From Acidimicrobiales bacterium (lineage in GTDB: Bacteria; Actinomycetota; Acidimicrobiia; Acidimicrobiales; RAAP-2): a stretch of DNA of 55,560 nt. The DNA lies in the NCBI GenBank assembly GCA_037141235.1, contig JBAXCY010000001.1, forward strand, positions 1 through 55,560, read 5' to 3'. Numbering within the stretch: the stretch's first letter is position 1; every line of letters begins with the position of its first letter. The translations under genes and the position numbers were made by a program. Positions 16,133 through 55,560 of this stretch are shown here, in pieces. The notes under the pieces are model-generated. The model did no database searches, was not told the origin of the DNA, and saw only the letters and a program-made list of their open reading frames with translations.

Positions 16133-16309
16133 CTACGGCTGGCGGCCGGTAGCGGCAAACAGGCTGCCCACGAACACAAGAATGCCGATCAAGGGAAGGA
16201 GGGCCACCAACCGCTCGGTTCTCGGTGCCTTCGCATGTCGATATCGCGAGTCACACGACCTGGTGCCGCCGGATGGGGACTCCAGAATCGCCAGATCTGC
16301 GGCCGTCAC
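16133..16309 (-). CDS. Candidate small single-pass membrane protein (58 aa), below the track length cut-off
   Basis: In the 257-bp gap between the aminotransferase stop and the GT2 start. A GTG-started frame reads (M)TAADLAILESPSGGTRSCDSRYRHAKAPRTERLVALLPLIGILVFVGSLFAATGRQP*. One clear TM helix. Third-position G/C is high by eye. No homology recognisable. Confidence 0.25.
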   Translation of the reverse strand: MTAADLAILESPSGGTRSCDSRYRHAKAPRTERLVALLPLIGILVFVGSLFAATGRQP

Positions 16310-16324
16310 TGGCTTTCCACAGAC

Positions 16325-18417: not shown

Positions 18418-18687
18418 CGCCGTTCACTTCTCCTGAGGCTGGGTTCGGGGCCAAAATACCCCTGTCGATCAGATCTCTCCGCGTCGGTGATGGTGCGATA
18501 GAGCCGGCTCGTCGTGAGTCTCCGACACGGTAGGCCGGTTCGTCCAGTCAGCCCGTCAATTTTCCGACACATCTAGTCAATAGTTGGCATCGGATCGGGC
18601 CCTTGCGCCTCTGTCCTCATGCCGATAACAGCAGAGCGGTTCGGCCTAGCTACCAGCGCCCTCTCCACGACGATCTGCTTGTCAGTG

Positions 18688-20835: not shown

Positions 20836-20889
20836 GCCAGGGAGAACCTCGTTCTTCGGTCAGCGGTTCCCCTGACTCGCGGTCAGGAG

Positions 20890-22743: not shown

Positions 22744-22848
22744 GTTGGTCCGCCTGCGCTCAGGAGCGACCGCGGCATCTCCTCGGCCACATCAACACAT
22801 CGATCTTTCGTTCCAACGCACTGCCTGCCGAGGGTCATCATGTCAGGA

Positions 22849-24960
22849 TCAGATGGACGTCTGCCGAGCCGCTGCCGTCACACCTGGACCATCTGCCGAC
22901 GCAGACGCAGCGCGGGCGAGAGGGCTCGCACCTTCGACTTCGCCGCCGTCCTCGGCATCTTCTTCGTCATCAACCTCGACCGGCGGTTGAACCAATCCTC
23001 CAACCAATGCCAGCCACCGTTCATCCTCGTCGACGGGCCGTAGTGGGCACCAGGGTTCGAGGCGACCGAGATTCGGGTTGTAGTAGGGATCACCCACCTT
23101 CAACAGATCGGTCCAACGGCTGAGAAATAGTTGGTAGTCGGAGTAGTAACCCGAGAGACCTCGGCTGACCGACTCGTAGTGGGTCAACTCGGCATGCGGG
23201 GTGCACAGCAGGCGGTATCCGGCTTGGCCCAACCGGATGCAGAAATCCACGTCGTTGAAACCAACGGCAAATCCTTCGTCGTAGCCATCGAGCTCTTCGA
23301 ACACTTCACGACGAACCAACAGACACGCCGCCGTGACGGCGCTATAGCTCCGCACCACTCGGTCCCAGGCGAAATACCCTCCGACGCCCTTGGGCATACC
23401 GATAAAGATATGGCTGGCAATACCGCCCATCCCCAGCACTACTCCCGCATGCTGCAACTTTCCGTCGGGATAGATGAGGCGGGCTCCCACGGCCCCTATT
23501 TCGGGTCGTTGCCCAAGTTCTACCAATGCGTGCAGCCATCCGTCGGTGGTCGCCTCGATGTCGTTGTTCAAGAAGAGGAGCATGTCTGTCGTGCACGTCG
23601 CTGCCGCAAAGTTGTTGATGGCCGCCCAGTTGAAGGCCCCCGGATAGTCCAGTACTCGGGTGTTCGGCCGGTCCTCCATCCGCCGGCGGAACTCCCTGGT
23701 TTCAGGTTCGGTGCTGCCGTTGTCGATGAGCACGACCTCGGTGATCTCATAACCCGGAGCCCGTTCCAACGACTCCAGGCAGGCCACAGTCAGTGAAGCC
23801 TGATCACGGAACGGGATGATCACGCTGACCGTCGGATCCCCGTGCACCCGACGCCGCACGTGATACGCCCCTTGGAACGGCCCAGTCTCGACAAATCCGT
23901 CGATCCCCTGGCGCTCCACGGCATCTTCGAGCACACGCCTGCTGGCCTGATGTGCCCACGGCTTGGCGTCGGTGTCGCCCGCCGCGGAGCCCGCCACCAC
24001 TCTCCAGTGATAGAGGACCTTGGGGATGTGGACGACCCGACGGGCCATCTCGGTGGCCCGGAGCATGACGTCGTAGTCCTGGCTGCCGTCGAACTCGGGC
24101 CGGAATCCCCCGACATGGCGGAGCACGTCATGTCGGACAGCGGTGATGTGCCCCAGGTAGGGGTAGGCCAGCAGTAGATCGGGATCCCAATCGGGCTTGA
24201 AGTGAGGCTGAATCGGCCGATCTAGTTCATCGAGTTTGTCCTCGTCGGAGTAGATGACGTCAACGTCGACATGCTCAGCCATGACGGCGGCGATCTCGCC
24301 CAATGCATGTAGCTCCAGAAGATCATCATGATCGAGGAGCACGATGAACTCGCCTGTGGCGACACCCAGTGCCCGGTTGGTGGCTCGAGAGATGCCCCCG
24401 TTCTTCTCCATATGCAGAACCTTGATCCGAGGGTCCGAGGCCGCGTACGCCTCCATGGCTGCGCTCAGCTCTGGATCTTCTGATCCGTCGTCGCACAGAC
24501 ATAGCTCCCACGACTGGTACGTCTGGTCGATCACGGACTGCACGCATTCACGGAAGTACCACAGCGCCGGCCGGTAGACCGGCACGACGATGCTCAGCAG
24601 CGGACCACTGGTCGGCAGCCCATCAGCCTCTTCGACGCCGCGCTGCAGCCGATCCTGGTTTCGCTCGTGAATCCAATGCCAGTATTCGGGAGGGAATGCA
24701 GAAGCCTCCTTGCCCCATCCAGGAACTTCCTCTTCATCGGGTGGCGTATCGGCTTCAGCGATAGCCAGCCGTTCAGACATCCAGGCAAGGGTCGCCGCTA
24801 GCGCCTCGGTCTCTTCGCTGGCCGATACTTCTTCCACACGCGCACCGTCTCCATACCCTGCAGGCACTGATGCCGCGAGTCCGCTGTCATTGGGAAGGTT
24901 CGGCTGCACGGTTGGGCGCAGATTATCATGCCTCCTTGCGCATCGGTCGATCCCACTCAC
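22849..24960 (-). CDS. Dual-domain family 2 glycosyltransferase
   Basis: Two GT2 cores: 'LLSIVVPVYRPALWYFRECVQSVIDQTY...LCDDGSEDPE...LLDHDDLL' and 'VSVIIPFRDQASLTVACLESL...LIDNGSTEPE...FLNNDIE'. Start codon uncertain (GTG at 24960 as in the track). Confidence 0.75.
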   Translation of the reverse strand: MSGIDRCARRHDNLRPTVQPNLPNDSGLAASVPAGYGDGARVEEVSASEETEALAATLAWMSERLAIAEADTPPDEEEVPGWGKEASAFPPEYWHWIHERNQDRLQRGVEEADGLPTSGPLLSIVVPVYRPALWYFRECVQSVIDQTYQSWELCLCDDGSEDPELSAAMEAYAASDPRIKVLHMEKNGGISRATNRALGVATGEFIVLLDHDDLLELHALGEIAAVMAEHVDVDVIYSDEDKLDELDRPIQPHFKPDWDPDLLLAYPYLGHITAVRHDVLRHVGGFRPEFDGSQDYDVMLRATEMARRVVHIPKVLYHWRVVAGSAAGDTDAKPWAHQASRRVLEDAVERQGIDGFVETGPFQGAYHVRRRVHGDPTVSVIIPFRDQASLTVACLESLERAPGYEITEVVLIDNGSTEPETREFRRRMEDRPNTRVLDYPGAFNWAAINNFAAATCTTDMLLFLNNDIEATTDGWLHALVELGQRPEIGAVGARLIYPDGKLQHAGVVLGMGGIASHIFIGMPKGVGGYFAWDRVVRSYSAVTAACLLVRREVFEELDGYDEGFAVGFNDVDFCIRLGQAGYRLLCTPHAELTHYESVSRGLSGYYSDYQLFLSRWTDLLKVGDPYYNPNLGRLEPWCPLRPVDEDERWLALVGGLVQPPVEVDDEEDAEDGGEVEGASPLARAASASADGPGVTAAARQTSI

Positions 24961-24987
24961 GTGCCTGATCGGTGCCTGATCGGTGCC
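24961..24987. repeat. 11-bp direct tandem repeat (gtgcctgatcg x2.4) in a divergent intergenic region
   Basis: Direct reading. Abuts the putative start of the dual-GT2 gene. A second duplicated motif, ctagaatcc x2, lies near 25086-25103. Confidence 0.7.
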
Positions 24988-25277
24988 AGTGGAACCTACG
25001 GAACGTCAACTGGCTGCATCGTGTGCCACCTCTCCACGAGGCCGGGCGGCAACTCCGGTGTTCGCTGTACCTCGGGTCCAACTAGCTAGAATCCCTAGAA
25101 TCCACAGGCCAGCCGGTAGGGTGGCGAGGAACATCCGGGCGGGCGCGGATCCTGAGTTTGATGATGCACCACGATGGGGCCTGTCCGGACGATCTCATAC
25201 AACCTGCCCGACCTGTGATGTGGAGGGCTCCACCGAAACCGTCGGGGCACGCTGCTCCAGATGAGGAGAAACACCGA

Positions 25278-41511: not shown

Positions 41512-41654
41512 GACGCCACCACCGTGGAGGCGCCAGTGGGGGCACAGTAGAGGTCGGCACGCGGCGCAAAGGTCATGGGCCTATTCTTCCCACGTCAGCC
41601 GGTGTCGTGCGACCCCGGCCGCAAATTCACCCCGACCAGGGGAAGAGACCACCT

Positions 41655-43253
41655 ATGCCCGTGCTCCCCACAACCATCGACTCCAACTCTGACTCCTTCA
41701 AGGAGAACGAGCGCGCCCTGCTCGAAGGGCTCGAACTGGTCAACGCTGAGCTAGCCATCGCTCGGGCTGGCGGAGGCGAGCGCTACGTGGCCCGCCACCG
41801 GGAGCGGGGCAAGATGACGGCCCGTGCGCGCATCGAACTGCTGCTCGACCGGGATGCACCTTTCCTGGAGCTCTGCCCGTTCGCGGCGTGGGGCACCGAG
41901 TACACCGTCGGTGCGTCGTCCATCATTGGGATTGGGGTGGTCGAGGGCGTCGAATGCCTCATAAACGCCACCGACCCCACCGTCCGGGGTGGGGCCATGA
42001 ACCCGTGGTCGTTCCGCAAGGGCGCCCGCGGCTCGGACATCGCGCTGGCCAACCGGCTCCCGTCGATCAGCCTGACCGAGTCGGGTGGTGCCGACCTCCC
42101 CGCCCAAGCCGAGCTGTTCATCCCGGGAGGGCGTGCCTTCCGTGACATCACCCGTCATTCGGCCGCCGCCATCCCGACCATTGCCGTCGTCTTCGGCAAC
42201 GCCACCGCTGGCGGGGCTTACGTGCCCGGCATGAGCGACTACGTGGTGATGATCGACCAGCGGTCCAAGGTCTTCCTCGGCGGTCCCCCCCTGGTGAAGA
42301 TGGCGACCGGCGAGGAGTCGACCGACGAGGAGCTCGGGGGGGCATCCATGCACGCCCGGGTGAGCGGCCTGGCCGACTACCTGGCCGCTGACGAAGTGGA
42401 CGCCATCCGGCTCGGGCGCCAGATCGTGAGCCGGCTCAACTGGCGCAAGACCGGGCCGGGTCCGTCCCAGCCAGCCGACGAACCGGTCCACGATCCCGAC
42501 GAGCTGCTCGGGATCGCCTCGGCCGACCCCAAGATGCCCTTCGACCCCCGTGAGGTCCTGGCCCGGGTGGTCGACGGCTCCCGGTTCGACGAGTTCAAGC
42601 CCCTCTACGGGTCCAGCCTGGTCACCGGATGGGCCTCGATCCACGGCTACCCGGTCGGCATCCTGGCCAACCACCGCGGTGTGCTCTTCTCCGAGGAGGC
42701 CCACAAGGCCACTCAGTTCATCCAACTGGCCAACCAGATCGACGTGCCGCTCCTCTTCCTCCAGAACACCACCGGATTCATGGTGGGCAAGGAGTACGAG
42801 CAGGGTGGAATCATCAAGCACGGGGCCATGATGATCAACGCCGTCGCCAACTCGTCGGTCCCCCACCTGACCGTCAACATCGGCGCCTCCTACGGGGCCG
42901 GCAACTACGGCATGTGCGGGCGGGCCTACGACCCCCGGTTCCTGTTCGCCTGGCCCAACGCCCGCTCGGCCGTCATGGGTCCGGCCCAGCTGGCCGGAGT
43001 GCTCTCCATCGTTGGGCGCCAGTCCGCCGCATCCAAGGGTGTGCCCTTCGACGAAGCGGCAGACGAGGCCATGCGGGCGCTGGTCGAGGCTCAGATCGAA
43101 TCCGAGTCGCTCCCCCTGCATCTGTCGTCGCGGCTCTACGACGACGGGATCATCGACCCCCGCGACACGCGGACCGTGCTCGGTCTGTGTCTGTCGGCCA
43201 TCGACAACCAGTCGACTGCGGGTACCCGCGGCTACGGCGTCTTCCGGATGTGA
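41655..43253 (+). CDS. Acyl-CoA carboxylase carboxyltransferase (beta) subunit, methylcrotonyl/geranyl-CoA carboxylase type
   Basis: ATG with GGAAGAG upstream. 'IDSNSDSFKENERALLEGL' N-terminus is typical of MCC-beta. 'GGARI-like' and 'ITRKAYGGAY-like' blocks read as 'VFGNATAGGAYVP' and 'NIGASYGAGNYGMCG'. 532 aa. Confidence 0.85.
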   Translation: MPVLPTTIDSNSDSFKENERALLEGLELVNAELAIARAGGGERYVARHRERGKMTARARIELLLDRDAPFLELCPFAAWGTEYTVGASSIIGIGVVEGVECLINATDPTVRGGAMNPWSFRKGARGSDIALANRLPSISLTESGGADLPAQAELFIPGGRAFRDITRHSAAAIPTIAVVFGNATAGGAYVPGMSDYVVMIDQRSKVFLGGPPLVKMATGEESTDEELGGASMHARVSGLADYLAADEVDAIRLGRQIVSRLNWRKTGPGPSQPADEPVHDPDELLGIASADPKMPFDPREVLARVVDGSRFDEFKPLYGSSLVTGWASIHGYPVGILANHRGVLFSEEAHKATQFIQLANQIDVPLLFLQNTTGFMVGKEYEQGGIIKHGAMMINAVANSSVPHLTVNIGASYGAGNYGMCGRAYDPRFLFAWPNARSAVMGPAQLAGVLSIVGRQSAASKGVPFDEAADEAMRALVEAQIESESLPLHLSSRLYDDGIIDPRDTRTVLGLCLSAIDNQSTAGTRGYGVFRM

Positions 43254-45436
43254 TGGCCATGACTCCCACTGACTCGAACGCACAGCCTGTCTCGAACGCA
43301 CAGCCTGACTCGAACGCACAGCCCAGCCCGGCTGCGCGGCTCGGCCCGACTGCACGGCTCGGCCCAGCGCGTCCCGTCACCTCGCTCTTGGTGGCCAACC
43401 GGGGAGAGATCGCGCTCCGCATCATGCGCACGGCACGAGCCATGGGTATCACCACCGTGGCCGTCCACTCTGATGCCGATGCCGATAGCCCGCACGTAGC
43501 CGCGGCTGACCTGGCCGTGCGCCTACCCGGCACGGCCCCAGCCGAGACCTACCTCCGACCCGACCTACTGCTGGCTGCGGCTGCGGCTTGCGGCGCAGAC
43601 GCCGTCCACCCCGGCTATGGCTTCTTGTCCGAGTCCGGTGACTTCGCCCGGGCCGTGGTCGATGCTGGCCTCATCTGGGTCGGCCCGCCGGCAGCGGCCA
43701 TCGATTCCATGGGTTCCAAGATCGGATCAAAGGAGATGATGCGGGCCGCCGGTGTACCCACCCTTCCCTCCATCACCATCGATGGCGACACCCCGCCCGA
43801 CGCAGAGCAGGTGGACGGCCTTGGGTGGCCGCTGCTGGTCAAAGCATCGGCTGGCGGTGGCGGCCGGGGCATGCGCATCGTGGATGGACCCGACGACCTT
43901 GCCGATGCACTCACGGGTGCCCGGCGCGAGGCGTTGTCGGCCTTCGGCGACGGCACGGTCTTCCTCGAGCGCTACGTCACCGCCCCACGGCACATCGAGG
44001 TACAGGTGCTGGCCGACGCGCATGGCGAGGTCGTCGCCCTGTTCGAGCGCGAGTGCAGCATCCAGCGCCGCCATCAGAAGATCATCGAAGAGGCCCCGTC
44101 GCCGGTGGTCGGACCTGCGCTCCGCGCTCGTCTGTCCGAAGCGGCCGTGGCCGCGGCCCGGGCCGTGGGCTACGTCAATGCCGGCACGGTCGAATTCGTC
44201 CTCGATGGCGAAGGTGATCCCTACTTCTTGGAGATGAACACCCGGCTCCAGGTGGAGCACCCGGTGACCGAGGAAGTGACCGGGCTCGACCTGGTCCGCC
44301 TGCAGCTCCTCATCGCCGGGGGATCTCCGCTTCCTGACGAAGTGCACCAGGCCGTGGCCCGGGGTCCGGTGGGCCACGCCATCGAGGTCCGCCTGTACGC
44401 CGAAGACGCAACCGCCGGTTGGCTGCCGTCGACCGGCACACTCGACGAGTTCACCGTCCCCACGGACCGGGCCGGGGTCCGGGTCGACTCCGGTGTGGTG
44501 TCGGGGGGAGTGGTCAGCCCCCACTACGACCCCATGCTGGCCAAGGTCATTGCCCACGCCCCCACTCGAGCCGAAGCAACGGCCACCTTGGCCGCTACGT
44601 TGGCTGAGTCCCGTATCCACGGAGTCACCACCAACCGCGATCTGCTGGTGCGCACCCTGCGCCACGTTGGGTTCGTGTCCGGTGCCACTGACACCGGCTT
44701 CCTTGACCGCCACGGGCTGAGCACCTTGGCCGCATCGCTGGCTGACCACGCCGCCGTGGCACGCCACGCCGTGGCTGCCGCCTTGGCCGGCCAAGCCGAA
44801 CGTCACGCTTCGGCTCGCACCCTCGGTGCCCTGCCGTCAGGTTGGCGCAACAACACAGTGGATGGCCAGGAGGTCACGTTCGACACTGGAACCCGGACGA
44901 TCCATGTCGGGTACCGGATGGGACGACGGGGTCGGGCCTTGGCCGAAGCCGCCGTCGACGGCCAGGTGCTCGATGTGGTTGCCGGTACCGTCAGCCCGAC
45001 CGAGGTAGTACTCACCACCAGCGGCCTCTCCCGTCGCTACCTGGTCCAGCGGGTCGGTGCCGTCACCTATGTCGATGGGCCCGACGGCGCATCCCGGTTG
45101 GTCGAAGAGGACCGTCATCCGATAGCGACCGAGCAGGTCGTCGAGGGATCGTCGCTCGCCCCCATGCCGGGCAGCGTGGTCCGAGTGGCGGTGGTAGCCG
45201 GCGACCATGTCGAGGCTGGGCAGGTACTGGTCGTGCTGGAAGCCATGAAGATGGAGCATGCCGTGCTGGCCGGCACGACGGGCACGGTGGTCGAAGTCGA
45301 TGTGGTCGAGGGCGACCAGGTGGAGACCGGCCGGGTCCTGGCCGTGGTGGAGGCCGACCCCGGTGACGACCCGGCAGGTAGCACGGTCGACGACCCGACA
45401 GACAGCACGGTCGACAGGGACCCTGCGGGATCGTGA
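43253..45436 (+). CDS. Acyl-CoA carboxylase alpha subunit (biotin carboxylase plus BCCP)
   Basis: Start overlaps the upstream stop. 'LLVANRGEIALRIMRTARAMGI', 'HPGYGFLSE', 'EMNTRLQVEHPVTE' and biotinylation motif 'LEAMKMEH'. Repeat-containing N- and C-terminal extensions. Confidence 0.85.
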   Translation: MAMTPTDSNAQPVSNAQPDSNAQPSPAARLGPTARLGPARPVTSLLVANRGEIALRIMRTARAMGITTVAVHSDADADSPHVAAADLAVRLPGTAPAETYLRPDLLLAAAAACGADAVHPGYGFLSESGDFARAVVDAGLIWVGPPAAAIDSMGSKIGSKEMMRAAGVPTLPSITIDGDTPPDAEQVDGLGWPLLVKASAGGGGRGMRIVDGPDDLADALTGARREALSAFGDGTVFLERYVTAPRHIEVQVLADAHGEVVALFERECSIQRRHQKIIEEAPSPVVGPALRARLSEAAVAAARAVGYVNAGTVEFVLDGEGDPYFLEMNTRLQVEHPVTEEVTGLDLVRLQLLIAGGSPLPDEVHQAVARGPVGHAIEVRLYAEDATAGWLPSTGTLDEFTVPTDRAGVRVDSGVVSGGVVSPHYDPMLAKVIAHAPTRAEATATLAATLAESRIHGVTTNRDLLVRTLRHVGFVSGATDTGFLDRHGLSTLAASLADHAAVARHAVAAALAGQAERHASARTLGALPSGWRNNTVDGQEVTFDTGTRTIHVGYRMGRRGRALAEAAVDGQVLDVVAGTVSPTEVVLTTSGLSRRYLVQRVGAVTYVDGPDGASRLVEEDRHPIATEQVVEGSSLAPMPGSVVRVAVVAGDHVEAGQVLVVLEAMKMEHAVLAGTTGTVVEVDVVEGDQVETGRVLAVVEADPGDDPAGSTVDDPTDSTVDRDPAGS
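43271..43324. repeat. 18-bp in-frame tandem repeat x3 (SNAQP-type) at the carboxylase alpha N-terminus
   Basis: (g/a)(a/t)ctcgaacgcacagcc(t/c) x3. Followed by a 15-bp duplication (ARLGP x2) near 43334-43366. Confidence 0.85.
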
Positions 45437-47277
45437 CCGAGCCGCTCCGCATCGCCAACTGCTCGGGTTTCTACGGTGACCGGATGGCCGCGGCCAAGGA
45501 GATGGTGGAGGGCGGTCCCATCGACGTACTCACCGGGGACTGGTTGGCCGAGCTGACCATGCTCATCTTGTGGAAGGGCATGCAGCGCGATCCGTCAAGG
45601 GGTTGGGCCCATACCTTTCTCACCCAGATGGAGGAGGTGCTCGGCACCTGTGTAGACAAGGGCATCAAGGTGGTCACCAACGCCGGTGGCCTCAATCCGG
45701 TGGGCCTGGCCGACCAGATGCGACTGCTGGCTGAACGGCTCGGCCTATCGGTCGCGGTGGCCCACGTCGAGGGTGACGACATCCTTTCCCGGCTCGGTGA
45801 CCTGCAGCGGCACGGCCACCCCATGGCCAACATGGACACCGGCGCCCACTTGGACACCTCGACGGGCACCGTGGTGTCGGCCAATGCCTACTTGGGTGCC
45901 TGGCCCATCGTCGAAGCGCTGCACGGCGGTGCCGACGTAGTGATCTGCCCCCGGGTGACCGATGCGTCGCTGGTGGTCGGCCCGGCCGCGTGGCACCACG
46001 GCTGGACCGAGTCCGATTGGGACCCGCTGGCTGGTGCAGTGGTAGCCGGGCACGTCATCGAGTGCGGGCCCCAGGCCACGGGGGGCAACTATGCGTTCTT
46101 CACCGAAGTCCCCGGACTCGAGCATCCCGGGTTCCCCATCGCCGAAGTGGCATCCGACGGTTCGTCGGTGATCACCAAGCATCCCGGATCAGGTGGGCAG
46201 GTATCGGTCGGGACCGTGACCGCGCAGCTCCTCTATGAGATCGGTGGCCACCACTATCCCAACACCGATGTGGTGGCCCGGTTCGAGACCATCGAGGTCC
46301 ACGACGAAGGCAATGACCGGGTTCGGCTGTCCGGCATCAAGGGGCTGCCCGCCCCCCACGACGTCAAGGTCTGCCTCAATCTGCTCGGCGGCTGGCGCAA
46401 CTCCATGACCTTCGTGCTCACCGGCCTCGACATCGAGGCCAAGGCCGACCTGACGGTGCGGTCGCTGTCGGCAGCCCTGGGCGGCACTGGTCAGTTCGAA
46501 GAGTTCCACACCTCCCTCGTCCGCTCCGACAAGTCCGATGCCCCGACCAACGCCGAGGCCACTGCCCTCCTGCGAGTGACGGTGAAGGACGAGGACGAGG
46601 AGCGGGTAGGGCGAAAGTTCTCGGGTGCGGCCACCGAGCTGGCCCTGGCCGGCTACCCCGGGCTCCATCTGACCGCCCCCCCTGGGGCGGGCAGCGCCTA
46701 CGGGGTCTACTGGCCAGCACTCATCCCAGCCGAGTTGGTCGTGCCGACCGTGGTTCACGCCGACAGGACCCGAGTAGAGGTGCCGCACCACACCAATCGA
46801 GCCGCTGAGGGAATGACCGTGGCCGGCCCCGGCCGCGATGCCTCGCTCTCTCCCGGGGTGCCCGAAGCCACCGACCTATCTGTCGGTTCCGACAACCTTC
46901 CGACCCCCACTGGTGTGCTCACAGCCAACGAGCCCACCAGCTTGGTGCCGCTCGGGACCATCATCGGCGCCCGCTCCGGCGACAAGGGCGGCAACGCCAA
47001 CGTCGGCCTGTGGGCCCGTTCCGACGATGCCTACGCATGGCTCGATGCCGAGCTCACTCTCGATCGCTTCCGCACCCTGCTGCCCGAGGCGGACGGCCTG
47101 GCCCTACAACGGCACGCGTTCGCGAAGTTGCGCTCCCTCAACTTCGTCGTCGTCGGACTGTTGGGTGAAGGAGTGGCCTCTTCTACCCGGCCCGATCCTC
47201 AGGCCAAGGGCCTCGGCGAGTATCTCCGAAGCCGCATGGTCGAGATTCCGGACCGACTCATCACTCCATCGCTCTAA
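45433..47277 (+). CDS. AtuA (acyclic terpene utilisation, DUF1446) family protein
   Basis: 'LRIANCSGFYGDRMAAAKEMVEGGPIDVLTGDWLAELTM' is the characteristic AtuA N-terminus. 614 aa. 4-bp overlap with the upstream gene. Confidence 0.75.
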   Translation: MTEPLRIANCSGFYGDRMAAAKEMVEGGPIDVLTGDWLAELTMLILWKGMQRDPSRGWAHTFLTQMEEVLGTCVDKGIKVVTNAGGLNPVGLADQMRLLAERLGLSVAVAHVEGDDILSRLGDLQRHGHPMANMDTGAHLDTSTGTVVSANAYLGAWPIVEALHGGADVVICPRVTDASLVVGPAAWHHGWTESDWDPLAGAVVAGHVIECGPQATGGNYAFFTEVPGLEHPGFPIAEVASDGSSVITKHPGSGGQVSVGTVTAQLLYEIGGHHYPNTDVVARFETIEVHDEGNDRVRLSGIKGLPAPHDVKVCLNLLGGWRNSMTFVLTGLDIEAKADLTVRSLSAALGGTGQFEEFHTSLVRSDKSDAPTNAEATALLRVTVKDEDEERVGRKFSGAATELALAGYPGLHLTAPPGAGSAYGVYWPALIPAELVVPTVVHADRTRVEVPHHTNRAAEGMTVAGPGRDASLSPGVPEATDLSVGSDNLPTPTGVLTANEPTSLVPLGTIIGARSGDKGGNANVGLWARSDDAYAWLDAELTLDRFRTLLPEADGLALQRHAFAKLRSLNFVVVGLLGEGVASSTRPDPQAKGLGEYLRSRMVEIPDRLITPSL

Positions 47278-47334
47278 TCTGACTGCAGCACCACTGTCAT
47301 CGGCCACGAGCCGGCAACGCGCCAGGAGGCATCC

Positions 47335-48498
47335 ATGGACTTCACCGAATCCGACGAGTTACAGATGCTGCGCGAGGCGGTCAGCTCGATCGCCCGCAAG
47401 TTCGGCCACGACTACTACGTCGAGAAGGCCAGGGCCGATGAGCGCACCGACGAGCTGTGGAACGCAATCGCCGAACAAGGCTTCCTCGGAGTCAACGTGC
47501 CCGAGGAGTACGGCGGCGGTGGTGGGGGGATCACCGAGTTGGCTGCGGTGGCCGAAGAGTTGGCCGCGGCTGGCTGTCCGCTGCTGGTCATCGTGGTGTC
47601 GCCGGCCATCTGCGCCACCATCATCGCCAAGTTCGGCACCGACACCCAGAAGCAGCGGTGGCTGCCCCGATTCGCCACCGGCGAGCTCAAGATGGCCTTC
47701 GCCATCACCGAGCCCGATGCCGGATCCAACTCGCACAACCTCGGCCTGACCGCCACCAAGGACGGCGACATCTACCGGTTGAACGGACAGAAGTACTACA
47801 TCTCCGGTGTCGATGAGTGCGAGGCCATCATGGTGGTGACCAAGACCGGAGTCGATCCGGACACCGGCCGGGGACGGCTGTCGCTCTTCGTGGTCGACAC
47901 CGATACACCCGGACTCGACAAGCAGGTGCTGCCGGTGGAGATCACCGCACCCGAGAAGCAGTTCACCCTGTTCTTCGACAACGTCCAGGTCGAGGCCGAC
48001 CGGCTCATCGGCGATGAGGGTGAGGGACTCCGCCAGGTCTTCTACGGCCTCAACCCCGAGCGCATCCTGTCGGCGGCCACGGCCAACGGCATCGGTCGCT
48101 ACGCCCTCGACAAGGCGGCTGAGTACGCGCGGACCCGCGAGGTGTGGGGCACGCCCATCGCCCGTCACCAGGGAATCTCCCATCCGCTGGCCAAGTGCAA
48201 GATCGAAGTGGAGCTGGCCCGGGTGATGACGGACAAGGCCTCCTGGTACTGCGACCACGACGGAGACTCGCCGTTGGCTGGAGAGACGGCCAACATGGCC
48301 AAGTACGCCGCCGCCGAAGCCACCTTGGCCGCCCTCGATCAGTCCATTCAGACTCATGGTGGGAATGGCATGTCGTCCGAGTACGGGATTGCCGACCTGT
48401 GGGGCATGGCCCGGCTGCTCCGGATCGCGCCAGTGAGTCGCGAGATGATCCTGAACTACGTGGCCCAGCACTCACTATCGCTGCCTCGCTCGTACTGA
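47335..48498 (+). CDS. Acyl-CoA dehydrogenase
   Basis: 387 aa. 'FAITEPDAGSN', 'YISGVDE' and 'QTHGGNGMSSEYGIADLW' are ACAD blocks. Confidence 0.85.
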   Translation: MDFTESDELQMLREAVSSIARKFGHDYYVEKARADERTDELWNAIAEQGFLGVNVPEEYGGGGGGITELAAVAEELAAAGCPLLVIVVSPAICATIIAKFGTDTQKQRWLPRFATGELKMAFAITEPDAGSNSHNLGLTATKDGDIYRLNGQKYYISGVDECEAIMVVTKTGVDPDTGRGRLSLFVVDTDTPGLDKQVLPVEITAPEKQFTLFFDNVQVEADRLIGDEGEGLRQVFYGLNPERILSAATANGIGRYALDKAAEYARTREVWGTPIARHQGISHPLAKCKIEVELARVMTDKASWYCDHDGDSPLAGETANMAKYAAAEATLAALDQSIQTHGGNGMSSEYGIADLWGMARLLRIAPVSREMILNYVAQHSLSLPRSY

Positions 48499-48865
48499 TC
48501 GAAGGGCGCTGATCAGGGCTGATCGATTGGCGATATCCGGCACCGTACCGACAGCTACTGAGCCGACAAACCCTCAACCTCTGGTCGAGGTCGATATAGA
48601 ACAGCTAGGTCGGGTGCGCTCCAGCTCCTGGCGGTGGCCGACCGATCCGACCCGTTCCGTCCCAGGACCTCTCTATCGGGGGACATCGGCTGCGGGCTAG
48701 ATCGTCCCCTTTCGTTCCTTTTGGTGGTTGATCAGCCACGCTCAGTGGGCAGGGGAGTTGCAGTTCGGTTCCTCAAGTCTGGGTTGCAGGCAGACGATAG
48801 GACTTTCAGGTGGAATCACGCCTAGAAGCGACCGTTCCCGCCCCGTATTCTGGCGAAAGAGTTCA

Positions 48866-51646
48866 ATGTTCCGACTTCCCGATGCACCTCGCAGTTCGGC
48901 TTCGAGCCGGCAGAGCAGGCTCCATGGAGCCTGGGGGCTCGTGCGCGCCACCGGGGCCGATCGATCGTGCCGCTACCGGGGCGAAGACGGAGTGACCATC
49001 GTCGAGGTGCTGGTGGCCTTCGTCCTCCTCATGATGATGATGCTGCCGGTGGGTGTGCTCTTCACCAGCGTGACGAGCCAAGCGGCCCTGGCCCGTCAGC
49101 ATCAGGCCGCGCTGCAGCTTGCGGACACCTGGGTCGAGGTCCTTTCCGATCCCACATCGAGCCCTCCTGTCTCTGGGGGCGCAGTGATCACCAATGTGCC
49201 TGCACCACCGAAGGCGCCCCCTGGCGTTGCGCCCCCGGTTTCGACGCTGGCCGGCACCGACTTCACCGTCACCGCCAACTACACACTGGCGCTGGTGAAC
49301 AACGTTGGCCAGTCCGACCTCTGCGCCAACGGCGACCCGCCCAGCCCGAGCCATCCCAGTGTGATTCAGCTGCTGGTCACCGTGAGTTGGAACAAGGGTA
49401 AGTACTCACTGTCTGATTCCTCCAACATCAACTACCCCCGTCCCGGCCTGCAGACCGAAGGCTTCTTGGCCATCAATCTGAGCAACGATGGTCAGTTCGA
49501 CAAGTTCGGCAACTCGGCGGTCAGCCGAATCGAAGCCTCACCGGTGACGGTCAGGCAGCTCACTTCCACCACCACGCCTCCCGTCTGGATCTCACCCAAT
49601 CCACTCACGTTCTACCCCGACGCCAACGGGTGCATCTTCGCCCAGGTCCCAGTGGGCACATACGATGTATCGCTGAACCAACCCGCGGCCGGCACGCCGA
49701 GCACCTTCTTGTCGTGGCCCGGGAGCCCTGCCTTCGTGACGCCCTCTGGTGCAACCTCCGATAACCCAGGAGTCCAAACTGTCACCGTGACGGCTTTGAC
49801 CGTCGTCCAGATGCAGCCATTCGACGAGGGCATCACCTCTTCTATTTCGTATGGAGGTGCATCGTCGGTGGACGGTGCCCTGACGTGTCCTGCAGCAGCC
49901 GGTCTGACTTGTCTGGTCACTGGTAACGGTAACTTGTCGGCTCAGGCCGCTTGGGGCAACGGTACGGGTTCGTGGACCTCGGCCAACGTGCCTTCCACCA
50001 CCAATATCAACCAGGTCGCCTGCACTACTGGTTCCTCGGCCACCTGTGTCGCCGTCGGCGACAACGCATCAGGAGCCGTCGCTCGAACTACGTCTACCAA
50101 CCTCTCGTCCACGGTGGCCGACACGCTGCCGAGTGGGGTGACTGACCTCACCCAGGTCACCTGCCCGTCGGCCAACGGCTGCTACGCCATCGGCTCGTCG
50201 ACGAATGGGCCGGTGCTCGTGGCCGCTGCCGTCGGACAGGGATCCCCGGCCGCAGATCGTTGGGTCGTTCTCTCTCTCCCGTCTCCGGCATTCACATCGA
50301 TGAACTCCATCGCCTGCCCTTCCTCCTCTACTTGCGTGATGACTGGACGTACCGGTAGTTCCACCCCTGCCATCATCCGCCTCGATGGCGACCCAGCCGG
50401 GCTGGCCGGAAACGCATCATGGGCACCTACCTACTCTGCCGACGTGCTGCCCACGGGCGCGGCAGGGTCTACCTCAGTCGGCACCGTGTCCTGCCCGACC
50501 AGTACCACTTGCTTGGCCCTGGCCACCGGAGATACCGCCGGTGCTTCCGATCCCACCGTGGTCACGTCCACCCTGAGCGGTTCAGGGGCTGATACCTGGA
50601 CCAACGAATCGACCTTCCCCACTGGGGCCAGTGCCATCACCAAGCTCGACTGCACCGCCAGTACCTGTGTGGCCATCGGAAGCCTGCCCGGTACCCCCAG
50701 CCAACCGGCCGTGTGGACCGGCGATCTCACTACTTCACCACACACCTGGCTCCAGGCTCAGAACGTTCCGACCGGTATTCTCGCCATCACGTCGGCTTCG
50801 TGTGGTGTCCCCGACGCCAGCGATACGGCTGACTGCATCTTCGGGGTCATCACTACCAATGCGTCGACTCCGGGCCAACTGCTCAGCGGAACTCTGTTCG
50901 GCGGAAGCTGGGTGTGGAACCTGGTGACTCCTCAGGTGACGTCATCCGTTCAGTACTACCTCGGTGTCTCGTGTGTGCACGCCTCCGGATCCGCCAATGC
51001 CACCTGCATGGCCGTAGCCGCCACCGGCAACGGTCCCAGCATCGTCACCACCTCCGCAGGCCCCAATGGCGCCTGGACAGCCCAGAGCGCTCCCGGAGGT
51101 AACGGTGTAGCCGTGTCCGGTATCCCCCTGCAGACAGCTCCATCGAGTAACTCCGATTGGACCACGCAAGTGACAGCGGCAGCGGCTAGCAATGGCAACC
51201 TCACCTCGCTCCCGCGCGTGCTCTATCCGGACTCCGGGGGCTACTCACTGTCGGCAGGCGACTGCTCGACCACGGCATCGGCACCGGCAATCGCCTCACT
51301 GGTTGCGATTCCCGGTGACACCGCCACTGCCGTAGTGCCGCTGGGTCTCCTCACCATCCAAGCCGTCGGCTCGAACGGAGTTCCGCTGGATGGAGCCAGC
51401 GTCACACTTGCCTCCACTCAGTGCGCTGGGACCAATACGTTCGCCCTCCCCACTACCGACCCGGCTGGATTCACCAGTGCGTCGGTCCCTTACGGCTCCT
51501 ACACCTACCTGATCAAGGTGGGGGGCACCACCTACCCGGCGAACGGGATCAACCTGACACTCGGCGGCCAGGCCATCACCACGCAGGGGCTGTCGGGCAG
51601 CGCAGTCGCCAACTACCTCCCCGTCGTCACCCAGGTGCACCCATGA
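48866..51646 (+). CDS. Giant modular type IV pilin-like protein: prepilin signal, PilV-like stalk, about 8 Cys-pair propeller-like repeats and prealbumin-like domains
   Basis: Class III signal 'RGEDG/VTIVEVLVAFVLLMMMML' with Glu at +5. Repeats of type 'VxCPsxxxCxAxG' every 45-55 aa. Start uncertain: ATG at 48866 with an AAAGAG-like SD, or GTG at 48941. Confidence 0.6.
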   Translation: MFRLPDAPRSSASSRQSRLHGAWGLVRATGADRSCRYRGEDGVTIVEVLVAFVLLMMMMLPVGVLFTSVTSQAALARQHQAALQLADTWVEVLSDPTSSPPVSGGAVITNVPAPPKAPPGVAPPVSTLAGTDFTVTANYTLALVNNVGQSDLCANGDPPSPSHPSVIQLLVTVSWNKGKYSLSDSSNINYPRPGLQTEGFLAINLSNDGQFDKFGNSAVSRIEASPVTVRQLTSTTTPPVWISPNPLTFYPDANGCIFAQVPVGTYDVSLNQPAAGTPSTFLSWPGSPAFVTPSGATSDNPGVQTVTVTALTVVQMQPFDEGITSSISYGGASSVDGALTCPAAAGLTCLVTGNGNLSAQAAWGNGTGSWTSANVPSTTNINQVACTTGSSATCVAVGDNASGAVARTTSTNLSSTVADTLPSGVTDLTQVTCPSANGCYAIGSSTNGPVLVAAAVGQGSPAADRWVVLSLPSPAFTSMNSIACPSSSTCVMTGRTGSSTPAIIRLDGDPAGLAGNASWAPTYSADVLPTGAAGSTSVGTVSCPTSTTCLALATGDTAGASDPTVVTSTLSGSGADTWTNESTFPTGASAITKLDCTASTCVAIGSLPGTPSQPAVWTGDLTTSPHTWLQAQNVPTGILAITSASCGVPDASDTADCIFGVITTNASTPGQLLSGTLFGGSWVWNLVTPQVTSSVQYYLGVSCVHASGSANATCMAVAATGNGPSIVTTSAGPNGAWTAQSAPGGNGVAVSGIPLQTAPSSNSDWTTQVTAAAASNGNLTSLPRVLYPDSGGYSLSAGDCSTTASAPAIASLVAIPGDTATAVVPLGLLTIQAVGSNGVPLDGASVTLASTQCAGTNTFALPTTDPAGFTSASVPYGSYTYLIKVGGTTYPANGINLTLGGQAITTQGLSGSAVANYLPVVTQVHP

Positions 51647-52563
51647 GGCGCTTCACCAACTCCGAGCGGGTCATGGACGACACCGGGATGACTCTCGTCG
51701 AACTGATCGTCGCTTCTACGTTGCTGGTCATCTTGACCACCGTGGTCGCCGTCACCATGGGCGTCTTCAATCAGGTCAGCATCAACGTCAGCGCCTCCTA
51801 CCAGGAGTACAACCAGATCTTGCCAGCGCTCCAACCGCTCGCTTCGCTACTGCGAGCCGAAGTAGAGCCCGCCCCATCAACCACCTATGGGGTGCCTCCA
51901 ACCTCCGCACCGTCTCCCGGATTCGTTTCCGTCGGGAACTTCAGCCTTACCTTCTACGCCAACGTCGGCACTGCATACGGAAACGTTGTGGCAGCTTGCG
52001 TCCGCACCTCTACCACCTGCCCGGCTACCTCGGCGGGCCCGGCCAAGATCGTGGCTCAGGAAATCGACCACACCGGTAGCGCGGTGACATCGACTTCGAA
52101 GTGCACCACGAAGACGGGGGAAACCTGCAGCTTCGTAGTGCGACGGTATCTCCCTAGCACGGTGGACGGTGTGTCCACTTGTCCTGGAGTCGGCAGTGGA
52201 CCACAGTGCACGTACCCCGCCACCTACACCGAGATCGTGAACGTCAGCGGCGTGGTCAACAACCCCATCCCCCCGCTGTCGGTGTCCGACACGCCACTCT
52301 CACCCATCTTCACCTACAACACGTGCGATCCTGTGACCTATGCCGTTACCAGCCTGACCGTGGCAAGCGGACAGTTGACCCCGACCTCGGCAGCCTCGGC
52401 CATCCAACTTGACTCCATCTTGAGCGTGGACGTCAATCTGCGAGTAGCGCTGAAGAGTTCCAGCTCTCAGAACGTCGCAGAAAACCACTTGCTCGCCTAC
52501 CGCTACCCCGCCCCGGTAGTCGGGGCGCCCTATCCGTTCCAATACACGACGTCAGTGGGATGA
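51643..52563 (+). CDS. Type IV minor pilin-like protein (PilW-like)
   Basis: ATGA overlap with the upstream stop. 'MRRFTNSERVMDDTG/MTLVELIVASTLLVILTTVVAV' is a prepilin cleavage/methylation motif with Glu at +5. 306 aa, several Cys pairs. Confidence 0.65.
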   Translation: MRRFTNSERVMDDTGMTLVELIVASTLLVILTTVVAVTMGVFNQVSINVSASYQEYNQILPALQPLASLLRAEVEPAPSTTYGVPPTSAPSPGFVSVGNFSLTFYANVGTAYGNVVAACVRTSTTCPATSAGPAKIVAQEIDHTGSAVTSTSKCTTKTGETCSFVVRRYLPSTVDGVSTCPGVGSGPQCTYPATYTEIVNVSGVVNNPIPPLSVSDTPLSPIFTYNTCDPVTYAVTSLTVASGQLTPTSAASAIQLDSILSVDVNLRVALKSSSSQNVAENHLLAYRYPAPVVGAPYPFQYTTSVG

Positions 52564-52568
52564 GCGCA

Positions 52569-55560
52569 ATGCACCAATCCGTTGGCCCGCAAGCCCAGCA
52601 GCCGGCTCGTTCTCACAAGTTGGACTCAATGACGACGAATGGTCCCCGCGTCCGCGGGTTCAACGATGTGGGTCAGACGGCCATCATCCTGGTGGTCATG
52701 CTGGGCCTGGTGACCTCCTTGATCGGCGCCGTGCTGGTCAACACCATGTTCCAGGCCATGCCCCTGCAGCGAGCTGTGGCGGTATCGGTCTACGCCCATC
52801 GGGCCATCCAGGCTGGTGAGAACGCATACGTCGCAGCCCTGAACGCCAACCCATCTCTGGCGCAATGCAATACATCCACCAACGGAGCCGGTACCTGTGC
52901 CGGGATCAGTTATGGGCAGTGGAACGAGGTGGCCGCTTCCGCCACCGCTGGATCCGACCCCGAGTACTACGCCTTCGGCAATCCTCAACCCACCTTCGAC
53001 CCGACTACTCACGAGTTGAAAGACCTCGCTGTTCAAGTGGTCGGTGCCGTTCATGAAACCTCGGCGAGGAACCACTACATGTTTACTTCCGCCACCATGC
53101 ACCTGGCGGCCACCAACGGCTTCCTCACCGGCATCTGGTGGTCGAACTATGAGTCTTACTCGGCTACTGGAAACTACAGCTCGTGCAAGTACAACTGGCC
53201 GGCCTACAACGGTGCCGGATCAGGCTGCACCCCGGTCTACTTCGGCCCGAACGACTACGTCTTCGGGCCCACGTTCACCAACGACTCGATCTACGAGTCC
53301 GGTTCGCCCTCCTTCGGTACGGCAACGGCACAGGCCCCCGTGCAGACGGCCGACCCCAACTGCCTCTTCGTCACCAGCAGTTTCAGCGCGACCGGCTGTC
53401 AGAACATCAACAGCACGATCATTGCCGCCCCTTACGTCTCGGGTTCCAATGGAAAGTGGCCAGCTTGTGACACCACCCACAGTTGCTACAACCACCCCGT
53501 AGAGCTTCCGCCAGCCAATAATGCCAGCCTTGGAGTCATTGCCGCGCAAAACGGATGCCTCTACACCGGGCCGACCCGGATCACGTTCTCTACCCTGGCC
53601 AATGGCACCGGACAGATGACCGTAGTGAGCCCCGAGACCAAAGAGAGCACAAAGACGGTCAAGGGCAAGACCTTCACGTGGGACACAGCCAACATTGCCA
53701 GCAATACCAACGACTGCCCGAATAACGGATCCGCCCCGCTGCCGGCAAACGGTGTGGTCTACGTCCAAAACGCCAGTCCGGCTGACTCCATCGCAGGTGC
53801 CAATCCCTTTGGTGCCTCGGTATACAACACGGTCACCAATGTCACGGCATCACCAACCACGCCAGTCGTCGGTTCACCAGTCACCCTGACAGCCACGATC
53901 ACGTCGGCCAGCGGCCAGCTCAGCACCGGTGCCACCGTCTCGTTCAGCCAAGGCACCACTGCACTCTCACAGTGCGCCAACGTTGCCCTCTCTTCCCCCA
54001 CGCCGGTAACCCCCACAACCAACCCACCGACCTACTGGGCCAGGGCCGTCTGCACCCTCACTAGTGCCACAGCTGCCACGTACTCAGCCACCTTCAACGC
54101 CAACACCACCTACACAACCACTAGTCAGGGCCAGCTCGGTAAGACGAACGTGCTTACCTCCACGGTTACCCGCGGTCCGAATGCTCAGACCAGCCCGGGC
54201 TGCAACGCCTGCTACTACGGCGCCACCAGTGCGCCCGACCTCGAAGGCGACGCCTTCGTCAACGGGAATCTGTCGGGTCAGGTGACGGTCGGCACGGCCA
54301 ACGACATCATCATCACTGGAAACATCACTTACGCCAACTGCGACTGGACAGTCGGCCAAAGCGGACTCAGCACGCCGTCCCTCGGGTTCTGCCCCCCCAA
54401 CATTGCCAAGCCCAATGACTCCCTCGGGCTGATCGCCAATGCCTTCGTTGAGGTCAACCACCCGATCGTGCCGGGTACCTCGACACTGCTGCCAACCTGC
54501 ACCACCCCCGGCGCCGTCATCTGCAATCCGTCCAACGGAACGACCGGCCTCACCATCGATGCGGCCATCCTTGCCCTCACCAAGTCCTTCGTCGTCAACA
54601 ACTATGCAGCGGGAGGGCCGCAAGGCAACCTGTACAACTACGGGTCGATCCAGCAGTACGCCCGAGGACCCGTGGGCACCTTCAGTGGGAACAGCTCGAC
54701 CTCCGGCTACCTCAAGCACTACAACTGGTCTCCGCTCCTCGATTACGTTTCACCACCCTCGTATCTCACTCCTTCCACCTCTTCGTGGAACTTGACCTCG
54801 ATCGACACCAACGCGGGATCGACTCCCACCAACCAGTGCCCACCCCTGAAGCCGGTTTATGGATCGACACTGCCCATTACTCAGTACTGCACGGCATCGA
54901 TCGGTGGACTGCCCACCTATCCCTCATCCACCGCTCCGTCGGCGCCGACTGACGTCGTCGTCCAGGCCAACGCCGATGGAACGGCCTCCGTTTCCTGGAC
55001 CACCCCGGGCTCCACCGGGAACTCACCCATCCTCAACTACAACGTAGGAATCTCCCCAATTTGCCCGGCCTGCACGGGAACCAGTTCGACCACGACGTCA
55101 ACCATCATCACCGGCCTCACCCCTGGGACCTACTACGTGTTCTCGTTGACAGCCACCAATGCGTTGGGCACCAGTGACCCTTCTCTTTCGTCGAGCTCCG
55201 TCGTCATCCCCACGGTGCCAGATGCCCCCACCCTGGTTTCCGCTGTGGCCAGCCTCGATGGCTCCGTCTCGGTCAACTGGACACCACCTTCCGCTCGAGG
55301 CTCAGCTATCACCGGTTACAAGATCACCCCCACACCGGGCTGCTTCGCCTGCACTGGACTGACGTCACTGTTGCCGACCACCGTGATCACCGGTCTGACC
55401 ACTGGATCCACGTACACGTTCACCGTGACAGCCACCAACCTCCTCGGCTCCGGCGCTGCATCTGCTGCCTCCAACAGCATCATCATCCCCACTGTCCCGG
55501 GCGTTCCCACCGCGGTCACCGCCTCCTCGGCAGCCAACCGCCAGTCGGTCGTGGCATGGA
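52569..55560 (+). CDS. Large surface protein (partial, more than 997 aa) with a PilX_N/Tad-like N-terminal anchor, an Ig-like module and at least 3 FN3 repeats; absent from the ORF track
   Basis: I translated frame 0 by hand from the ATG at 52569 to the window end and found no stop. N-terminus 'GQTAIILVVMLGLVTSLIGAVLVNTMF...AHRAIQAGENAYVAALNAN'. Ig-like 'VTASPTTPVVGSPVTLTATITSASG'. FN3 units start near 54935, 55215 and 55497 ('SWTTPG...ILNYNV...GLTPGTYYVFSLTATNALG'). Confidence 0.6.
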   Translation, partial: MHQSVGPQAQQPARSHKLDSMTTNGPRVRGFNDVGQTAIILVVMLGLVTSLIGAVLVNTMFQAMPLQRAVAVSVYAHRAIQAGENAYVAALNANPSLAQCNTSTNGAGTCAGISYGQWNEVAASATAGSDPEYYAFGNPQPTFDPTTHELKDLAVQVVGAVHETSARNHYMFTSATMHLAATNGFLTGIWWSNYESYSATGNYSSCKYNWPAYNGAGSGCTPVYFGPNDYVFGPTFTNDSIYESGSPSFGTATAQAPVQTADPNCLFVTSSFSATGCQNINSTIIAAPYVSGSNGKWPACDTTHSCYNHPVELPPANNASLGVIAAQNGCLYTGPTRITFSTLANGTGQMTVVSPETKESTKTVKGKTFTWDTANIASNTNDCPNNGSAPLPANGVVYVQNASPADSIAGANPFGASVYNTVTNVTASPTTPVVGSPVTLTATITSASGQLSTGATVSFSQGTTALSQCANVALSSPTPVTPTTNPPTYWARAVCTLTSATAATYSATFNANTTYTTTSQGQLGKTNVLTSTVTRGPNAQTSPGCNACYYGATSAPDLEGDAFVNGNLSGQVTVGTANDIIITGNITYANCDWTVGQSGLSTPSLGFCPPNIAKPNDSLGLIANAFVEVNHPIVPGTSTLLPTCTTPGAVICNPSNGTTGLTIDAAILALTKSFVVNNYAAGGPQGNLYNYGSIQQYARGPVGTFSGNSSTSGYLKHYNWSPLLDYVSPPSYLTPSTSSWNLTSIDTNAGSTPTNQCPPLKPVYGSTLPITQYCTASIGGLPTYPSSTAPSAPTDVVVQANADGTASVSWTTPGSTGNSPILNYNVGISPICPACTGTSSTTTSTIITGLTPGTYYVFSLTATNALGTSDPSLSSSSVVIPTVPDAPTLVSAVASLDGSVSVNWTPPSARGSAITGYKITPTPGCFACTGLTSLLPTTVITGLTTGSTYTFTVTATNLLGSGAASAASNSIIIPTVPGVPTAVTASSAANRQSVVAW

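Follow-up and report, generated by a model that had tools for sequence, protein, structure and literature searches.

A pilin-like protein with a predicted eight-bladed, Cys-paired beta-propeller heads a three-gene operon of Acidimicrobiales

The window analysed here is a stretch of 55,560 nucleotides from an Acidimicrobiales bacterium (contig JBAXCY010000001.1, assembly GCA_037141235.1). It carries a three-gene operon on the forward strand. The first gene of the operon (gene 1) encodes a protein with a pilin-like N-terminus and eight repeats, each marked by a pair of Cys residues. A first-pass annotation, made from the sequence without database searches, had suggested that these repeats form a beta-propeller fused to a pilin. 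Gene 1 has two candidate start codons, an ATG at 48866 (926 residues) and a GTG at 48941 (901 residues), and a public cluster of 100% identical proteins contains members of both lengths. The GTG start gives a 17-residue leader, which is nearer than the ATG start to the short leaders of the homologues. Residue numbers throughout are counted from the ATG at 48866. The features of gene 1 are as follows.

48728..51646, + strand: open reading frame with the repeat, holding all ten peptides quoted in the first-pass annotation
48941/48866..51646, + strand: gene 1, putative modular type IV pilin with a propeller (open reading frame list, homologues, AlphaFold2)
48941..49147, + strand: predicted class III (prepilin) signal and alpha1 helix (weak Pfam N_methyl match, conserved motif, AlphaFold2 helix)
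49148..49495, + strand: predicted globular pilin beta-sheet, residues 95-210 (AlphaFold2 strands at 131-142, 165-175, 180-190 and 198-204)
49496..49861, + strand: first predicted beta-sandwich, residues 211-332, containing GCIFAQVPVGTYDVSL (all-beta in AlphaFold2, predicted local distance difference test score, pLDDT, about 90)
49862..51175, + strand: predicted eight-bladed beta-propeller, residues 333-770 (Cys repeat, conservation, AlphaFold2, Foldseek, blade comparison)
49862, 49997, 50138, 50291, 50468, 50627, 50777 and 50948, + strand: starts of the eight blades, with blade 8 ending near 51142
51176..51643, + strand: C-terminal predicted beta-sandwich, CarboxypepD_reg/prealbumin-like, residues 771-926, containing GFTSASVPYGSYTYLIKV (AlphaFold2, sub-threshold PF13620 matches)

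The propeller stretch has 16 Cys residues, which make up eight C-x4-10-C pairs at residues 341/349, 386/394, 433/439, 484/490, 543/549, 596/601, 646/657 and 703/714. Their codons span 49886 to 51005 in the window. The distance from the first Cys of one pair to the first Cys of the next is 45-59 residues, and the gap within a pair is 4-10 residues. The first-pass annotation gave units of 45-55 residues with a Cys-x4-11-Cys opening, which is essentially right and needs only these adjusted limits. The region that it marked (49883-51128) lies inside one gene and is the propeller region, placed here at 49862-51175. Composition-preserving shuffles of residues 333-760 gave 16 Cys in eight consecutive C-x4-10-C pairs in 0 of 200,000 trials. 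A profile-profile comparison of the eight blades, with each profile built from 80 homologues, connects all of them. The lowest E-values are 1e-8 (blades 3-5 and 3-8) and 6e-8 (blades 2-8). Blade 7 stands farthest from the others and matches blade 8 with an E-value of 9e-6.

A homologue search of 5.8 billion proteins gave 103 relatives, about 90 of which are full length with 42-76% identity, and a tail reaches down to 26%. In an alignment of 88 homologues, 15 of the 16 paired Cys are kept in every sequence and the sixteenth, C549, is kept in 85, and this conservation holds down to 26% identity. The majority of homologues have exactly 20 Cys, namely the 16 paired residues plus C153, C256, C800 and C853. 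C153, in the pilin sheet, is present in 87 of the 88 sequences and C256, in the first sandwich, in all of them. By elimination, two further pairs are possible: C153-C256 could link the first sandwich with the pilin module, and C800-C853 could hold the last domain together. Since the shuffles, the homology between blades and the conservation among homologues point the same way, the Cys pattern is not a product of chance. The periodic pairs described in the first-pass annotation are therefore real, and the two follow-ups it had suggested for them, a comparison of the internal repeats and a look at the Cys pairs in homologues, both support them.

An AlphaFold2 model of the whole protein, built from the homologue alignment, has a pLDDT of 87.0 and a predicted template modelling (pTM) score of 0.75. 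The model begins with a disordered leader, followed by a helix (residues 46-94), a four-stranded sheet (131-204) and a beta-sandwich that extends to about residue 330. Eight consecutive four-stranded sheets follow (339-740), and a second beta-sandwich closes the protein (790-926). When residues 325-780 were modelled alone, the same eight sheets of four strands were predicted with a pLDDT of 89.7 and a pTM of 0.87, which supports the propeller proposed in the first-pass annotation and gives no sign of a low-confidence disordered repeat region. In every blade the first Cys stands at the end of strand A and the second at the start of strand B, so that the pair sits on the A-B hairpin and each blade has one conserved pair, as had been suggested. 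A hairpin closed by a disulfide in an exported protein would be expected to have its Cys residues placed in this way. From the predicted topology we infer that each blade would hold one disulfide and that the blades would form a closed ring. The first-pass annotation had also described a strand-like stretch ending in a Trp. That stretch is better described as a degenerate Asp-box (e.g. SGSGADTW, GTGSW, PNGAW), whose Trp lies in the C-D loop and is kept in seven of the eight blades. The A-B loops and the propeller core are highly conserved. The B-C loops have the highest entropy, with 2.17 bits vs 1.0-1.2 for strands A-C.

Of the best 50 matches listed for the propeller model in a Foldseek search of the PDB, nearly all are beta-propeller proteins, with a probability of 1.00. 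The top matches are the Photorhabdus sugar-binding lectins PLL/PHL, with template modelling (TM) scores on the target of 0.55-0.62. They are followed by the eight-bladed DPP-IV (TM on query up to 0.49) and FAP (about 0.35). Further matches include GH74 xyloglucanases, sialidases, sortilin and tricorn, and a search with the whole protein agrees. The identity to these matches is 7-16%; therefore, the likeness is at the level of the fold only. The propeller is a compact and confidently predicted eight-bladed fold without a close solved relative.

The matches to GH74 xyloglucanases and sialidases, and the presence of relatives in the BNR/Asp-box world, raise the possibility that the propeller is a glycoside hydrolase of either type carried on a pilin. 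The alignment does not favour this. The invariant propeller columns hold only Cys, Gly, Trp and Ala, and the last three are structural, not catalytic, residues. There is no conserved acidic pair, Arg triad or His, and D419 is the sole near-invariant acidic residue of the propeller. The gene 1 protein is very poor in charged residues (E 0.8%, K 0.6%), and its identity to GH74 enzymes and sialidases is 8-13%. An enzymatic propeller is very unlikely and was rejected, since the alignment has no conserved residues of a catalytic type.

The family of propellers to which gene 1 belongs is apparent from its more distant relatives. The weakest matches of the first search (P0100-P0103) are secreted multi-propeller proteins. 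Together with P0136 they match PF14870 (PSII_BNR, Ycf48), PF13088 (BNR_2) or PF15902 (Sortilin-Vps10), and also BNR. BLASTP and phmmer place the similarity of the gene 1 propeller to such Cys-pair Asp-box propellers at E-values of 1e-14 to 1e-35. In pairwise alignments, these relatives share the blade plan and the VSCPS...C.AVG Cys pair, and they have canonical T.DGG.tW Asp-boxes, e.g. VTCPSTLHCYAVG ... TTDGGNSWTDQAVPSG. The gene 1 protein itself has no BNR-type Pfam match at E<=1. The link of the pilin propeller to BNR proteins is therefore indirect, because only its homologues match the BNR models. When 1.84 billion cluster representatives were searched exhaustively with phmmer, 1,180 proteins, each representing a cluster at 50% identity, matched at E<=1e-3. 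Among the best 150 of these, about 20 are further pilin-propeller fusions. The non-pilin matches among the best 150 are mostly about 700 residues long, with signal-peptide-like N-termini, 12-14 Cys-pair motifs and 28 Cys. Because the relatives share the Cys-pair hairpin and the blade plan, sequence comparison suggests that the pilin propeller is a divergent eight-bladed offshoot of a large, uncharacterised, secreted Cys-pair BNR/Asp-box (Ycf48-like) family.

Two side observations concern these relatives. The proteins P0116-P0246 are an apparently secreted Cys-pair family in which only some members match the Pfam model PSII_BNR and a few match DUF6087. In the P0096/P0097 subfamily a lectin-type LamG/ConA-like domain (PF13385) is inserted in blade 1 (residues 408-567 of P0096) while the rest of the propeller is kept. 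A replacement of the propeller by LamG in these two proteins was considered and rejected, as the pairwise alignment places the insertion within blade 1 and the propeller is retained.

The two domains that flank the propeller had both been called prealbumin/carboxypeptidase-regulatory-like. This may hold for the C-terminal domain, where PF13620 is matched consistently in five homologues with E-values of 4e-7 to 2e-5, although all are under the gathering score of 32.3 bits, and one sub-threshold SpaA match (PF17802) occurs among the same five. The gene 1 protein itself matches neither PF13620 nor PF17802 in the Pfam search. A profile of the whole family gave nothing significant against PDB sequences, and its best match (E 0.31) is a weak one between the C-terminal domain and a collagen-adhesin B repeat. 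The N-side sandwich (residues 211-332) is a beta-sandwich in the AlphaFold2 model and has no Pfam match.

The N-terminus of the gene 1 protein reads ...RYRGEDG before the predicted prepilin cleavage site, which lies between G42 and V43 (48989-48994), and VTIVEVLVAFVLL after it. The mature sequence would begin with VTIVEV, with Gly-1 and Glu+5 in place. This G-x-x-x-x-E motif is kept in the gene 1 orthologue of most of 45 loci. Two homologues, P0003 and P0041, exceed the N_methyl cutoff with 22.1 and 23.1 bits, and the Joint Genome Institute (JGI) names many homologues PilV or PulG. NCBIfam matches occur only at the level of the N-terminal helix (ComGE, E 0.006; Verru_Chthon cassette protein C, E 0.026). 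In the AlphaFold2 model the alpha1 helix is 49 residues long and is followed by the four strands between residues 131 and 204. The pilin part of the fusion claimed in the first-pass annotation is thus supported by the motif, a weak N_methyl match, the helix and the sheet, which are conserved in homologues. The Gly-1/Glu+5 motif and the predicted helix and sheet place the gene 1 protein among the modular pilins as Raynaud et al. 2021 (PMC8179133) define them, namely proteins with an N-terminal pilin module and one or more further domains that are not particular to type IV pilus biology. Here the pilin module is joined to a beta-sandwich, a propeller and a CarboxypepD_reg-like domain.

The two genes downstream of gene 1 are also on the forward strand.

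51643..52563, + strand: gene 2, 306-residue pilin-like protein with the leader MRRFTNSERVMDDTG followed by MTLVELIV (N_methyl, TIGR02532)
52560..55560, + strand: gene 3, running off the window, with a pilin-like hydrophobic N-terminus, a conserved domain of about 330 residues and fn3 repeats

The ATG of gene 2 overlaps the stop codon of gene 1 (ATGA), and the ATG of gene 3 overlaps the stop codon of gene 2 in the same way (ATGA). The three genes are translationally coupled. Gene 2 matches N_methyl with an E-value of 0.0025 and passes TIGR02532 with 16.4 bits vs a cutoff of 16.3 bits. It also has Gly-1 and Glu+5, and the motif is kept across most of the 45 loci. The N-terminus of gene 3 has a conserved D-x-G followed by QTAIVAV (DLGQTAIVAV) and is without Glu+5. 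Proteins of the GspK and PilX class, which sit nearest the tip, typically lack Glu5. The order of propeller pilin, 306-residue pilin and giant Glu5-less fn3 protein is kept across loci. Gene 3 orthologues range from 634 to more than 4,126 residues (L001 13698-17216; L002 13569-22598), and a pilin-anchored protein of this size would be exceptional. Searches of PDB sequences with gene 2 and with the N-terminal domain of gene 3 gave no match. A homologue search with the latter domain gave 34 mostly fragmentary proteins, and the few with a named source are from Acidimicrobiales. A promoter, a terminator and an Rfam element were sought at the operon start, and none was found.

This operon allows a different role for the propeller. 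The three genes could form a priming or tip complex mainly for filament initiation and passage through the wall, in which the propeller, instead of binding a ligand, is a structural cap or a docking platform for the products of genes 2 and 3. The strict synteny and translational coupling of the genes fit such a complex, as do the lack of Glu+5 in gene 3, which resembles GspK and PilX, and the high conservation of the propeller core and A-B loops. The variable, fn3-rich gene 3 product could then be the true adhesin. However, the B-C loops are variable, the LamG domain inserted in blade 1 of one subfamily agrees with a propeller that binds a ligand, and the nearest folds are lectins and glycan-binding enzymes. 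A purely structural cap is rather unlikely, and the cap and binding roles are not mutually exclusive.

The operon order also bears on PilY1, to which the first-pass annotation had compared the propeller. A true homologue of the C-terminal propeller of PilY1/PilC, fused to a minor pilin, would explain the shared general fold class and pilus setting, and the order of the genes resembles pilV-pilW-pilX(-pilY1). However, the gene 1 protein has no PF05567 (IPR008707) match at E<=1, and no PilY1/PilC chain occurs among the top 50 Foldseek matches in the PDB for either the whole-protein or the propeller model. There is instead clear sequence homology to the Cys-pair Asp-box propellers. Homology to PilY1 is extremely improbable and was rejected on the absence of the PF05567 match and of PilY1 among the listed fold matches. 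The comparison stands as an analogy only.

One genome per species was scanned, and the gene is present in 43 loci from genome records. These are without exception metagenome-assembled genomes (MAGs) from bog, palsa and soil samples. The titles of 42 give Acidimicrobiales or Acidimicrobiaceae, and the remaining one gives Actinomycetes. In the loci examined here, the operon is found in Acidimicrobiales MAGs only. On long MAG contigs it lies at one and the same chromosomal position, with atuA/acyl-CoA dehydrogenase genes on one side and bipA on the other. Several loci have a gene of 612-616 residues after the operon, and this is bipA in a locus with precomputed Pfam matches.

The reading favoured here, and considered somewhat probable, is that gene 1 encodes a modular minor type IV pilin whose propeller head is a binding module, most plausibly at the pilus tip. 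Several results weigh against it. The carriers are all uncultured MAGs, and the protein is known from its sequence alone. The N_methyl match (PF07963) of gene 1 has an E-value of 0.0038 and, at 17.2 bits, is under the cutoff of 21.2 bits. The profile of the family found no solved pilin among PDB sequences. Pfam searches across the window found no pilus assembly genes, motif scans found no PilB/PilT-type Walker A or A24 peptidase motifs in the window or within 10 kb in the 45 loci, and no major pilin was found. The TM-scores to known propellers are modest (0.44-0.62); therefore, no ligand can be transferred by homology.

Some of the same results could be explained if gene 1 encoded a cell-surface protein in which an uncleaved pilin-like helix is a mere membrane anchor and the propeller never enters a filament. 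This would be consistent with the lack of pilus machinery within 10 kb in the 45 loci and with the sub-threshold N_methyl score. The head is also about 85 kDa, which is very large for passage through a monoderm wall. However, a simple anchor needs neither Gly-1 nor Glu+5, and both are conserved in genes 1 and 2 at most loci. Minor-pilin operons are commonly unlinked from the machinery, e.g. fimU-pilVWXY1E in Pseudomonas aeruginosa. Bulky modular pilins are known to assemble (PMC8179133). The membrane anchor is therefore unlikely.

If gene 1 encodes a minor pilin, a prepilin peptidase would cut after Gly42. The cut protein would then be held in a type IV filament by its hydrophobic alpha1 helix, which bears Glu+5, and by the small pilin sheet; the tip is its most plausible place. 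The remaining residues, about 700 in number, would form a rigid stalk and head made of the first beta-sandwich, the propeller and the CarboxypepD_reg-like beta-sandwich. In an exported actinobacterial protein the Cys pairs would be expected to form disulfides, giving a ring of eight staples that each close an A-B hairpin. This ring would lie on the same face as the degenerate Asp-boxes and may make the module more resistant to the mechanical and chemical stresses of the extracellular environment. Standard propeller topology places the B-C loops opposite the Cys hairpins and Asp-boxes. Because the B-C loops are the most variable, a ligand is probably bound on the face that they form with the D-A loops. 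The likeliest ligand would be a glycan or another surface polymer. A binding role of the propeller is indirectly supported by the lectins and glycan-active enzymes among its nearest folds, the LamG insertion in one subfamily, the carbohydrate-binding-like fold at the C-terminus and the variable B-C loops.

The products of genes 1-3 may together form a tip or priming complex in the order pilV-pilW-pilX, with the propeller built into the pilin. A more speculative extension, which is possible but doubtful, is that the three-gene cassette is a PilY1-independent pilus tip. The propeller would be carried by a PilV-like pilin, the giant fn3 protein would cap the filament, and the eight-disulfide ring would serve load-bearing adhesion in acidic peat and soil. 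If this is true, the type IV filament would bear the gene 3 cap as a fibrillar adhesin.

The closest known counterparts of the gene 1 protein are the PilB (vWA module) and PilC (ConA/LamG-like lectin module) of Streptococcus sanguinis, which are modular pilins acting as adhesins (PMC8179133, PMC9934059). They resemble it in having an N-terminal class III pilin module, a bulky module that is not specific to pili, a monoderm host and a proposed adhesive role at the tip. Modular pilins have PF13620 and PF13385 among their most frequent modules (PMC8179133), and both occur in the gene 1 family or a subfamily of it. In contrast, PilB and PilC have about 450 residues vs about 900 for gene 1, which carries an eight-bladed Cys-stapled propeller with two beta-sandwiches. 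The operon described here is also unlinked from the machinery and known from genes alone. The main text of PMC8179133 names no propeller among the modules that it discusses. For propeller, BNR or WD40 architectures, the part of its supplementary text that was available mentions only the legend of a PilY1 dataset.

The PilY1/PilC system with its PilV-PilW-PilX (GspI-J-K) minor pilins shares the combination of a propeller with minor pilins, the order of pilin, pilin and Glu5-less protein, and a presumed role in priming and tip adhesion (PMC7541494). However, PilY1 is the product of a separate gene and is not a pilin, whereas in the operon described here the propeller belongs to the polypeptide of the first pilin and the bacterium is a monoderm. 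The Pfam and top 50 Foldseek results given above show no likeness of PilY1 to gene 1 in sequence and no close likeness in structure.

The BNR/Asp-box proteins (Ycf48, BNR_2, Sortilin-Vps10) share the blade plan of hairpin, strand, Asp-box Trp and 'lP.G', and the secreted Cys-pair propellers of Acidimicrobiales and related bacteria also share the VSCPS...C.AVG pair. These relatives have seven or two times seven blades and a Sec or lipoprotein signal, whereas the gene 1 propeller has eight blades, degenerate Asp-boxes and a pilin fusion. The Photorhabdus lectins PLL/PHL (PDB 5C9O, 5MXE) are the best match to the isolated propeller, with a probability of 1.00 and TM-scores up to 0.62 on the target. 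They are soluble lectins with seven blades, 8-14% identity and no pilin, and the likeness is again at the fold level only. The plant receptor kinase CRINKLY4 (ACR4/PpCR4) has a solved extracellular WD40-like propeller with one conserved disulfide per blade (bioRxiv 10.1101/2020.08.10.245050), as is putatively the case in gene 1. It differs in having seven blades and an RCC1/UVR8-like fold. Since CRINKLY4 is not among the fold matches, the resemblance is convergent.

Within the known class of modular pilins, the propeller is a new type of module and the three-gene cassette is a new type of operon. The pili of Actinobacteria studied so far are of the Tad (Flp) type (PMC6916266), and adhesion by type IV pili is poorly understood, especially in monoderm bacteria. 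Type IVa genes have been reported in another order of Acidimicrobiia (PMC12008989). The family shows that a propeller can be joined to a pilin in one chain, whereas diderms have it in PilY1, a protein of its own, and this extends the idea of pilins as carriers of effector modules. It also draws attention to the large, uncharacterised group of secreted Cys-pair Asp-box propellers (the 1,180 clusters at 50% identity). The operon is a candidate surface-attachment apparatus for Acidimicrobiales of soil and peat.

Two of the loci have additional genes directly downstream of the operon (L023 16390-20147; L026 16426-20015). These genes encode a second large pilin (893-949 residues, 20 Cys) and a small pilin-like open reading frame. 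Because it has 20 Cys, the second large pilin is probably another propeller pilin, and the arrangement looks like a tandem duplication of the cassette.

In the window, the region directly upstream of the operon (41607-48498, + strand) holds an atu/liu-type cluster with genes for a carboxyltransferase, a biotin carboxylase, AtuA and an acyl-CoA dehydrogenase. This cluster is syntenic with the pilin operon in distant MAGs. Farther upstream, the region at about 14000-25000 has a GC content of 0.60-0.62 vs 0.66-0.69 elsewhere. It encodes GT2 glycosyltransferases, a DegT aminotransferase, a methyltransferase and a DUF7657/DUF7654 protein, and is probably a surface-polysaccharide cluster.

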